Assembly (NCBI GenBank): GCA_963851365.1 | Contig: CAWKPA010000001.1 | Location: forward strand, 40,390 to 104,389 | Direction of reading: 5' to 3' | Length of the DNA stretch: 64,000 nt | Source of the DNA: an uncultured delta proteobacterium | GTDB taxonomy: Bacteria; Desulfobacterota; Binatia; DP-6 | Shown: piece after piece, positions 29,543-30,757 of the stretch | How the letters are laid out: the number at the start of each line of letters is the position of its first letter | Numbering within the stretch: position 1 is the stretch's first letter | Program-made: the position numbers and the translations under genes | Notes under the pieces: generated by a model | What the model was told of the DNA's origin: nothing | Databases searched by the model: none | What the model saw: only the letters and a program-made list of their open reading frames with translations

Positions 29543-30757
29543 GTGGCCCTGCTGTCCCCGCTCAGCGACGACCAACGCACCACGCTGCTGGTCGTGTCGC
29601 TCGCGCCGAAGGCGCTGCGCAAGCTGGTCGGCCGGCTCGGCACCGCGCCGTCCGGCACGCGGCTGGAGTCCATGTCGGTATGGGATCTCGCCTGGAGCCT
29701 CGTCGACTACTACGACAGCGACCTGGAGGTGGCACGCGAGGTGGATCGGACGGTGCAAAAGGAGCTGGGCGACCCCCCGCTGCTCTCGGCCGCCCGCGGC
29801 GAAGGCGCGCCCGACGCGCTCGCCGCTCTCGTGCTGTCGTCACGCGATCCCCTGCGCGAGCTGGCCTGGGCGTTGCTGGCGGCCGGCGGCCCGGACGCGG
29901 CCGCCCGGGCGGCGGAGCTCGTGGAAGCGATCGTCAAGGAGTTCGACGAAGCCGACGCGCGCGCCAAGGCCGAGGAAGAGGAGGAGGCCGCCGCCGCGCC
30001 GTCCGAGGCGCCTCCCGGAGAGACCGAGGCCGAGCGGTTGGCTCGCGAGAAGGCGAAGGAGGCCACGCAGGCGCAGCGCGCGCGCGCCCGCGCGCTGAAG
30101 CGCGTCGACAGCATGAAGGATCGGCTCGTCGAGCTGGAGACCGGTCTCGCCGCCGCGCGGCGCGACCTCCGCACGGCGGAGGAATCGCGGACGCAGGTCG
30201 AGGCGGACCGCGATCGGCTGCTGCGCGAGCGCGACGCACTCAAGACGCAGCTCCAGACGGGCACCGCCGGCGAGGTGGCCAGGCTCCGCGACGAGCTGGA
30301 GACGGCGCAACGTCGGCTCCGCAACCTGGACGCGGAGCTGGAGGAAGCGCGCGACGCCGAGGCTGCGCTCACCGCGAAGCTCCGCGAGCTGTCGGACCGA
30401 CGACCCGCGCAGGCCGCCGGCGAGGAAGGCGAGCAGGCCGCGGCGGCAGCCACGGCCACCTGGAGCTTGCCGGTCTTCAGCGACGAGTTCTACGACTCGA
30501 TCCGGCGCTGGGACCGCAAGATCGTCCGCAACGCGTTCGAGAAGATCCACCGCCTGAGCGACGACTGGCGGCACCCCAGCCTGCGCGCCATCCCGCTGGA
30601 GGGCCTGCCCGGCTGCTACCGCATCCGGGTTGCCACCGACGTGCGGCTCATCTACCGGCCGCTCGACGGCAATCGCGTGGAGATCATGTCCCTCATCGAC
30701 CGTGAGGACCTCCAGCGCTACATCCGCCAGGCGAAGACGCGCACCGGCACGTCGTAG
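29543..30757 (+). CDS. three-part protein: helical N-domain, ~170-aa coiled coil, C-terminal RelE/ParE-toxin-like domain
   Basis: Strong GC3 bias throughout. Central E/R/A/L heptad-rich segment. C-terminal FSDEFYDSIRRWDRKIV..LEGLPGCYRIRVATDVRLIYRPLDGNRVEIMSLIDREDLQRY follows the RelE/ParE template. GTG start at 29543 has no clear SD. Confidence 0.7.
   Translation: MALLSPLSDDQRTTLLVVSLAPKALRKLVGRLGTAPSGTRLESMSVWDLAWSLVDYYDSDLEVAREVDRTVQKELGDPPLLSAARGEGAPDALAALVLSSRDPLRELAWALLAAGGPDAAARAAELVEAIVKEFDEADARAKAEEEEEAAAAPSEAPPGETEAERLAREKAKEATQAQRARARALKRVDSMKDRLVELETGLAAARRDLRTAEESRTQVEADRDRLLRERDALKTQLQTGTAGEVARLRDELETAQRRLRNLDAELEEARDAEAALTAKLRELSDRRPAQAAGEEGEQAAAAATATWSLPVFSDEFYDSIRRWDRKIVRNAFEKIHRLSDDWRHPSLRAIPLEGLPGCYRIRVATDVRLIYRPLDGNRVEIMSLIDREDLQRYIRQAKTRTGTS

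Follow-up and report, generated by a model that had tools for sequence, protein, structure and literature searches.

A RelE-type domain at the end of a conserved, antitoxin-free coiled-coil protein of Binatia and Myxococcota

The locus and its product

The window analysed here is a stretch of 64,000 nucleotides (nt) with a G+C content of ~72%, from an uncultured delta proteobacterium of the Binatia (assembly GCA_963851365.1, contig CAWKPA010000001.1, positions 40,390 to 104,389). Its open reading frame (ORF) at 29543..30757 on the forward strand, listed with a GTG start at 29543 and a stop codon ending at 30757 (404 codons plus stop), encodes a protein of 404 amino acids (aa) that ends in a RelE-type domain. 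RelE/ParE domains are textbook selfish or defence toxins, which are small, fast-evolving and always paired with an antidote, and genes for defence or for toxin-antitoxin pairs tend to be mobile, to evolve fast and to have a patchy distribution. Present results place this known toxin fold in an undescribed, conserved and antitoxin-free architecture that spans three phyla. The start of the gene is that of the full-length homologs (57-88% identity), which begin at the same residue, and the N-terminus MALLSPL agrees with the homolog starts.

The gene for a luciferase-like monooxygenase (LLM oxidoreductase) ends 38 nt upstream of the ORF, and the gene for a cysteine-rich protein of 176 aa (30914-31444, forward strand) begins 156 nt downstream. 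These are the flanks described by an earlier reading of the window made from the letters alone (the sequence-only reading), and the two gaps, at 38 and 156 nt, are too small for an antitoxin gene. No promoter or terminator consensus was found around the gene by a simple scan.

The C-terminal domain is related to RelE-type ribonucleases

The RelE-type (BECR-fold) domain, delimited by hidden Markov model and Foldseek matches, covers residues 307-404 (30461..30754, forward strand; start checked by translation) and has an isoelectric point (pI) of 9.9. The last 105 residues of the protein matched Pfam PF05016 with 22.3 bits (E=2e-4), just below the 23-bit cutoff, and NCBIfam RelE_StbE (TIGR02385) with 17.8 bits (E=3.5e-3) against a cutoff of 27.9. 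Searches of PDB sequences recovered E. coli RelE with the single sequence (E=2.5e-3) and with a profile of 20 homologous C-terminal domains (E=2.3e-4), RelE being the sole family matched by the profile. As far as sequence comparison goes, the match to RelE is real: above chance, marginal at the level of the single sequence, and below the curated Pfam and NCBIfam thresholds. The HMMER alignment to E. coli RelE residues 10-87 comprises the blocks FSDEFYDSIRRW.., LEGLPGCYRIRVATDVRLIYR and RVEIMSLIDREDLQRY, and thereby reproduces all three blocks by which the sequence-only reading had aligned the last ~90 aa to the RelE/ParE template by eye; the structural search described below supports the relationship independently.

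A full-length AlphaFold2 (AF2) model was built from 21 homologs, with a mean predicted local distance difference test score (pLDDT) of 81.8 and a predicted TM-score (pTM) of 0.37. Residues 311-400 adopt the RelE topology in this model with block-averaged pLDDT of 77-93, the elements being a short strand at 311-312, helices at 314-320 and 325-340, strands at 359-364, 367-374 and 378-386, and a final helix at 387-403. The top 27 Foldseek matches in PDB were all toxins of the RelE/ParE (BECR-fold) superfamily, with target TM-scores of up to 0.78. The best were, in order, RelE, YafQ, YoeB and then ParE (target TM-scores 0.64-0.78, root-mean-square deviation 1.8-3.0 Å), with RNase-type toxins ranking above ParE. 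Judged from the model, the C-terminal domain has the RelE fold and is, at the domain level, a member of the RelE/ParE superfamily.

The likeness is to RelE-type RNases in particular, as opposed to ParE, which poisons gyrase. PF05016, although named ParE_toxin, includes E. coli RelE and mixes RNases and gyrase poisons in one family (Gerdes 2025, PMC11980606), and its name is therefore no argument for ParE. In RelE, R61, R81 and Y87 are the critical residues, and K52 and K54 probably help to stabilise the transition state (Neubauer et al. 2009, PMC2807027). The HMMER alignment places K52, K54, R61, R81 and Y87 at R360, R362, R368, R387 and Y393 of the 404-aa protein, which thus carries a putative equivalent of the whole catalytic set. 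The first three lie in the strand segment RIRVATDVR (30620..30646, forward strand) and the last two in REDLQRY, at the start of the C-terminal helix (30701..30721, forward strand), both positions having been checked by translation. Conservation was assessed in 240 homologs, which are 90%-identity cluster representatives comprising 120 from a search with the window protein (Binatia-type) and 120 from a search with a Myxococcaceae homolog (Myxococcota-type). R360, R362, R368 and R387 are Arg in 240/240 and Y393 is Tyr in 238/240, which bears out the basic residues and terminal Arg and Tyr picked out from the sequence alone and disfavours a dead, non-catalytic fold. The K52 and K54 positions hold Arg for Lys, and the position of RelE R45 holds a conserved Glu in this family.

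ParE toxins lack the RNase catalytic residues (PMC11980606), a hallmark that the 404-aa family does not share. Of the earlier label 'RelE/ParE-like', the RelE-type RNase half therefore stands, while the retained catalytic residues and a profile that matches RelE only speak against the gyrase-poisoning ParE half. The sequence-only reading was to be abandoned if no similarity to RelE/ParE appeared or if the catalytic positions varied among homologs and the fragment was non-toxic; the similarity was found and the positions are conserved. E. coli RelE (the RelBE toxin; PDB 4V7J/4V7K, 4FXE) resembles the domain in its basic character, in the basic residues at the K52, K54, R61 and R81 positions and in the Tyr at Y87. 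RelE, however, is a fast-evolving protein of 95 aa made together with RelB, whereas here the domain ends an antitoxin-free protein of 404 aa and is 63% identical across phyla.

Helical module, coiled coil and linker

The remainder of the protein has the layout that had been read from the sequence, a helical N-domain followed by a coiled coil ahead of the C-terminal domain, as seen in the AF2 helices and in the heptad periodicity given below. Residues 9-134 are helical in the model, and long helices cover residues 117-151, 162-239 and 242-285. The N-terminal all-helical module (N-module; residues 1-116 in the AF2 model; 29543..29890, forward strand) is acidic, with a pI of 4.7, and residues 1-135 modelled alone gave an eight-helix domain with a pLDDT of 95.4 and a pTM of 0.81. 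Foldseek found no structural relatives of this model (best E=4.5 in PDB and E=1.1 in the viral library), and no Pfam, NCBIfam or PADLOC match fell on N-module residues. The sole sequence hint, from a profile of the N-domain against PDB, was one HEAT/ARM-like repeat near residues 100-135. A conserved core at residues 13-74 (29579..29764, forward strand; coordinates checked by translation) is common to the Planctomycetota sister family described below, as aligned by hhalign, and includes a G38-x-R40 motif (29654-29662, forward strand), whose Gly and Arg do not vary across the cross-phylum alignment.

The N-module is followed by a connecting helix, residues 117-151 in the model (29891..29995, forward strand), in which heptad periodicity was not significant, and by a low-confidence break at residues 152-161. 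The two long helices 162-239 and 242-285, separated by a break of two residues (30026..30397, forward strand), each have a 3.5-residue hydrophobic periodicity that was reached by 0/2000 shuffles in the cross-phylum alignment, and therefore form a true coiled coil instead of a single charged helix. This genuine heptad coiled coil spans ~125 aa. The acidic linker that follows (residues 286-306; 30398..30460, forward strand; pI 4.05) is disordered, with pLDDT <50 at residues 289-307, and poorly conserved, with 17% identity between phyla. The polypeptide is thus split by charge, the N-module, coiled coil and linker having pI values of 4.1-5.0 (residues 1-288 alone, 4.7-5.0) and the RelE domain one of 9.9. 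No recognisable antitoxin domain (RHH, HTH/Xre, Phd/YefM, RelB, ParD, MqsA or similar) was found in the 404-aa polypeptide by searches of Pfam, NCBIfam and PADLOC, or in its N-domain by profile against PDB and by Foldseek against PDB and the viral library, and the protein is therefore not a fused single-gene toxin-antitoxin of a known kind.

Distribution and conservation

At least 607 relatives of the 404-aa protein are present in the protein database; among the best 120, almost every one is full-length, with 57-88% identity. The great majority of the 240 homologs have 390-470 aa (range 341-491), outside the ~85-110 aa of type II toxins. A genome scan with one genome per species gave 123 loci; the 80 that were fetched each came from a different assembly, and these belonged to Binatia and Myxococcota, bar one contig binned as Candidatus Limnocylindria (Chloroflexota). 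On that 8.5-kb contig the match (L017, 133-432) lies at the very start and is 80% identical to the Binatia C-terminal domain, and a truncated gene on a wrongly binned contig is a more probable explanation than a fourth phylum. The gene is also carried by cultured Anaeromyxobacter strains, in which NCBI labels the orthologs 'type II toxin-antitoxin system RelE/ParE family toxin' or 'hypothetical'.

The C-terminal domain is the slowest-evolving part of the protein. Between Binatia and Myxococcota the identity is 63% in the RelE domain, 25% in the N-module, 21% in the coiled coil and 17% in the linker. The segment from the end of the N-module model (~residue 135) to the C-terminal domain has a median length of 165 aa in Binatia (interquartile range 163-167) and 168 aa in Myxococcota (interquartile range 163-170). 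A slow C-terminal domain and a spacer of constant length are the opposite of what is seen in fast-evolving toxins, and suggest a constrained target for the C-terminal domain and a structural, ruler-like coiled coil. A tblastn search of 72,556 plasmids and 50,697 phage records found no relatives, and the mobile or patchy distribution of a type II module was not observed; the family looks vertically inherited in Binatia and Myxococcota.

The architecture, comprising a helical N-module with G-x-R, a coiled coil of constant length and a C-terminal RelE-type domain, is fixed in every member of the family. The best candidate for a stand-alone domain, a 113-aa protein (P0256), was rejected as a frameshifted copy of the full gene on a 1.7-kb contig (L092, GCA_009772435.1). 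On this contig the family gene is broken by frameshifts, as is the rhodanese gene that follows it, and the result is a spurious 113-aa 'stand-alone RelE-like' protein in databases. Orthologs from Anaeromyxobacteraceae (such as P0229 of A. dehalogenans, at 7001-8422 of locus L086) carry an extra N-terminal tail of 40-85 aa, which is Lys/Ala/Pro-rich and histone-H1-like with a pI of 12. This tail is absent from Binatia proteins, including the 404-aa protein, and hints at nucleic-acid binding.

Genomic context

A partner gene was sought by clustering the neighbouring ORFs of 89 loci and by reading nine annotated neighbourhoods. No conserved or antitoxin-like partner was shared across clades in this set, in which synteny was lineage-specific only. 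Neighbours are constant within lineages and different between them, and are of housekeeping type, including RNase J, aat, LexA, MutS, IscA and rhodanese. In Binatia they vary, from the LLM oxidoreductase of the window to a 4HBT thioesterase, a CoA-transferase and a convergent RecBCD. In Anaeromyxobacter, a metallophosphatase and a signal-peptide protein are encoded upstream with LexA, MutS and Lon nearby, and the gene order around the target is the same in A. dehalogenans and A. oryzae. One clade of Myxococcales has a 4HBT thioesterase and RNase J downstream, and another has IscA/ErpA upstream with rhodanese and a CPBP protease downstream. A 300-aa gene located 4 nt upstream in Anaeromyxobacter was rejected as a partner, as it encodes the signal-peptide protein and has no Pfam match, and a 109-aa gene downstream in one myxococcal clade was rejected as an antitoxin because it encodes the rhodanese.

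No defence-island context was met in the annotated loci, in which neighbours are metabolic or housekeeping, and PADLOC returned only weak coiled-coil matches of the full protein to LmuB, JetC and PbeC and none for the C-terminal domain. Apparently vertical inheritance, occurrence in different assemblies, the absence of plasmid and phage relatives and the housekeeping surroundings disfavour a classical or mobile toxin-antitoxin system. By partner gene, size and mobility alike, the 404-aa gene does not qualify as a type II toxin-antitoxin module and instead stands alone on the chromosome.

Some details of synteny were also recorded. The 176-aa protein downstream in the window has a hydrophobic N-terminus, many cysteines at regular spacing and no Pfam match, and on a second contig (2.8 kb) the target is followed by this gene as well. 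More distant neighbours in the window are patatin, chalcone-isomerase-like, SDR, GDSL-lipase and PMT_2 genes. The block of patatin, chalcone-isomerase-like and luciferase-like genes (window 26550-29504) is kept at 2017-4992 of locus L081, which encodes a relative with 72% identity (P0042). There, three additional genes separate the block from the target (a 184-aa hypothetical protein, a PAS-GGDEF protein and an MFS fragment), and on the 3' side RecD/RecB/RecC run convergently towards it. A gene for a 4HBT (hotdog) thioesterase adjoins the target upstream in one Binatia genome (L083, 7498-7947), and also in one Myxococcales clade, where it lies downstream, overlaps the target and is followed by RNase J (L088, 8224-8691; L026, ~7150-7619). 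This shared adjacency may be left over from an ancestral gene order or may have arisen by chance.

A sister family and a wider superfamily

The profile of the C-terminal domain was searched against 1.84 billion representative proteins. The family itself accounted for 38 matches at E<=1e-30, many of them fragments, and was separated by a clear gap from a second tier at 35-57 bits, comprising canonical toxins of ~90 aa, proteins of ~335 aa, and proteins of ~690 aa with SEC-C, coiled-coil and PF24732 regions. The ~335-aa group is a Planctomycetota family (P0361 and P0293, for example), all but one of whose source-supplied names are 'hypothetical'. It aligned with the 404-aa family over the coiled coil and C-terminal domain with an hhalign probability of 99.5% (E=2e-22), and over the N-module core with its G-x-R motif with a probability of 95.3% (E=2.1e-8; 60 columns, residues 13-74). 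The Planctomycetota proteins differ from the 404-aa protein in that the second half of the N-domain is missing, the coiled coil is shorter and the linker is basic. The equivalents of K54, R61 and R81 are invariant Arg in this family.

At three Planctomycetota loci the gene is located upstream of aat, which encodes Leu/Phe-tRNA-protein transferase, directly in two of the three and with one NUDIX gene between in the third, and no antitoxin gene was found at these loci. In the three genomes concerned (L089-L091, gene at 6001-7020, 42-46% identical to the query) the gene also lies downstream of a PilM-like cluster. The aat gene is the most consistent neighbour met anywhere in the superfamily.

The ~690-aa class (600-736 aa; P0300, P0306, P0316 and ~30 other representatives) combines a SEC-C zinc motif (PF02810), a coiled coil and a C-terminal PF24732 'ParE_like' domain. 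These proteins resemble the 404-aa family in having a long helical or coiled-coil body that ends in a RelE/ParE fold, and were retrieved by the C-domain profile at 35-45 bits, but their N-terminal parts, including the SEC-C motif, are different. The SEC-C proteins of ~690 aa and P0310 reach or come near the PF24732 cutoff, and the 404-aa protein scored 13.2 bits (E=0.092), below the 24.4-bit gathering cutoff. A shorter class of 310-390 aa (P0291, P0310, P0340, P0374) carries a 'PALSIIFARA'-type motif just ahead of the coiled coil. In one repetitive protein of 1715 aa (P0289), six stretches matched positions 35-74 of the C-domain profile (E=1.6e-8) while its Pfam matches are unrelated cell-surface-type repeats, and this is probably a compositional or repeat artefact.

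The survey across genomes therefore finds the architecture to be widespread, in Binatia, in Myxococcota and in the Planctomycetota sister family, and the 404-aa protein represents a large superfamily of these three phylum-level lineages rather than an isolated oddity. Our search of the literature found no paper on the 404-aa family. The latest survey of the superfamily, which covers mono- and multidomain RelE/ParE toxins (Gerdes 2025, PMC11980606), likewise includes cases in which the RelE/ParE-fold domain lies inside a larger protein; those described are PtuZ (a PIN-like domain with a BECR fold), which belongs to a defence operon, membrane-bound ToxM, and fusions in which an antitoxin domain can be recognised. 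Many multidomain proteins without an identifiable antitoxin gene or domain were excluded from that survey, and its text and supplements make no mention of coiled coils, SEC-C, Anaeromyxobacter or Binatia (PMC11980606).

Possible function of the 404-aa protein

The reading that we favour, with a probability of roughly 0.4 and on comparative evidence, is that the 404-aa protein is a domesticated, tethered, ribosome-dependent mRNA endonuclease that serves translation surveillance or mRNA turnover. Under this proposal the C-terminal domain, as an active RelE-like endoribonuclease, would enter the A site of the 30S subunit and cut mRNA there, and its extreme conservation would reflect contacts with invariant 16S rRNA; RelE itself contacts nearly exclusively conserved 16S rRNA (Neubauer et al. 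2009, PMC2807027). Thanks to the flexible linker, the domain could get into the A site with the remainder of the protein left outside, and the coiled coil would form a fixed-length arm or an oligomerisation rod. The acidic N-module may set when and where the nuclease acts, for example at stalled or collided ribosomes, or may restrain the basic nuclease domain. In the cell, the protein would take part in day-to-day surveillance of translation or in mRNA turnover, by analogy with SmrB or Rae1, rather than in addiction or suicide. The preference for this reading draws on the homology to RelE and the shared fold, the retained catalytic positions, the conservation of the C-terminal domain, the absence of an antitoxin and of mobility, the housekeeping neighbours, the constant spacer, the genuine heptads and the fixed architecture.

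Several points weigh against it. We infer RNase activity and ribosome binding wholly from homology. An unrestrained RelE is expected to be toxic, and some restraint is needed. The full-length model contains no confident contact between domains and, with a pTM of only 0.37, does not fix their arrangement. The neighbours with roles in RNA and translation, RNase J and aat, are confined to single lineages. The Planctomycetota proteins have an invariant Ser at the K52 position and mostly Thr at the Y87 position. The complete RelE catalytic set is thus not found throughout the superfamily, and the argument for classical RelE chemistry is the weaker for it.

Of the three options raised by the sequence-only reading, the dead fold is disfavoured and the tethered or domesticated RNase is preferred, and the serious rival, though a less likely one, is a self-restrained single-chain toxin. 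In that case the acidic N-module and coiled coil would fold onto the RelE domain as a cis antitoxin, and a trigger such as stress, phage or proteolysis, for example by Lon, would free the nuclease to halt translation (compare the fused toxin-antitoxin CapRel). The charge split between residues 1-288 and the RelE domain recalls toxin-antitoxin pairs, an active RelE without an antitoxin requires some restraint, and Lon is encoded nearby in Anaeromyxobacter. In the AF2 model, moreover, the outer helices of 35 and 44 residues together approximate the 78-residue central helix, which would fit a rod of two hairpins joining residues 117 and 285 and leaving the N- and C-terminal domains side by side. 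Functional fused toxin-antitoxin genes have been reported (PMC11980606). The N-module, however, resembles no known antitoxin fold or family, PADLOC gave no specific match, and the confident interdomain contact that a cis antitoxin implies is missing from the model (pTM 0.37). The linker is acidic in the 404-aa family but basic in Planctomycetota, and a family that looks vertical, is absent from plasmid and phage records and has a near-invariant effector domain is not what a toxin would lead one to expect.

It is improbable that the RelE fold serves as a binding module without RNase activity, docking a coiled-coil scaffold on the ribosome or RNA or, like ParE, on DNA gyrase or DNA. This reading keeps some weight because two of the five RelE positions (the equivalents of K52 and Y87) are gone from the sister family, which nonetheless is equally conserved; selection may thus act on binding rather than on RelE chemistry. 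The histone-H1-like tail of Anaeromyxobacter, with its pI of 12, and the DNA-repair genes near the target in some lineages (LexA and MutS; RecBCD) would also suit it, but those neighbours are encoded on the other strand and are not shared from one clade to the next. Its appeal to the ParE_toxin name of the best Pfam model and to the ParE structures in the Foldseek list is countered by the mixed content of PF05016, which contains RelE (PMC11980606), by the family profile, which matches only RelE in PDB, and by the higher Foldseek rank of RNase toxins. ParE lacks the RNase residues (PMC11980606), whereas all five positions are kept here. Database names point to an ordinary type II toxin with an antitoxin gene that was missed or lies elsewhere: NCBI calls P0195 and P0229 'type II toxin-antitoxin system RelE/ParE family toxin', and JGI calls several homologs 'mRNA-degrading endonuclease RelE of RelBE toxin-antitoxin system'. 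This is very improbable for a protein four times the size of a type II toxin, with flanking gaps too short for a further gene, immediate neighbours that are clade-dependent enzymes and secreted proteins, and no small partner common to clades among the 89 clustered loci.

The tethered-nuclease reading has functional parallels. SmrB, MutS2 and Rae1 are cases in which a small nuclease or sensor domain is brought to stalled or collided ribosomes by housekeeping proteins. The analogy is one of function only, as their folds (SMR, NYN/PIN-like) are unrelated and have no likeness in sequence or structure to the 404-aa family. We propose, more tentatively than the tethered nuclease itself, that the RelE fold was anciently domesticated into a core, antitoxin-free component of translation or mRNA surveillance with a coiled-coil arm and a helical sensor module, which would make it a third class of ribosome-associated quality-control nuclease beside the SMR type (SmrB, MutS2) and Rae1.

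Significance

A RelE-type fold as the slowest-evolving part of a large protein without an antidote suggests that a toxin has become a tool of the cell, and a slowly evolving, apparently vertical RelE domain would surprise a toxin-antitoxin specialist. One question that follows is how the cell keeps an unpaired nuclease of the RelE type safe. For annotation, neither 'type II toxin-antitoxin system RelE/ParE family toxin' nor 'hypothetical' fits the orthologs. If the domain is active on ribosomes, the family would represent a new route of mRNA surveillance or ribosome rescue in poorly studied lineages, including the cultivable Anaeromyxobacter.

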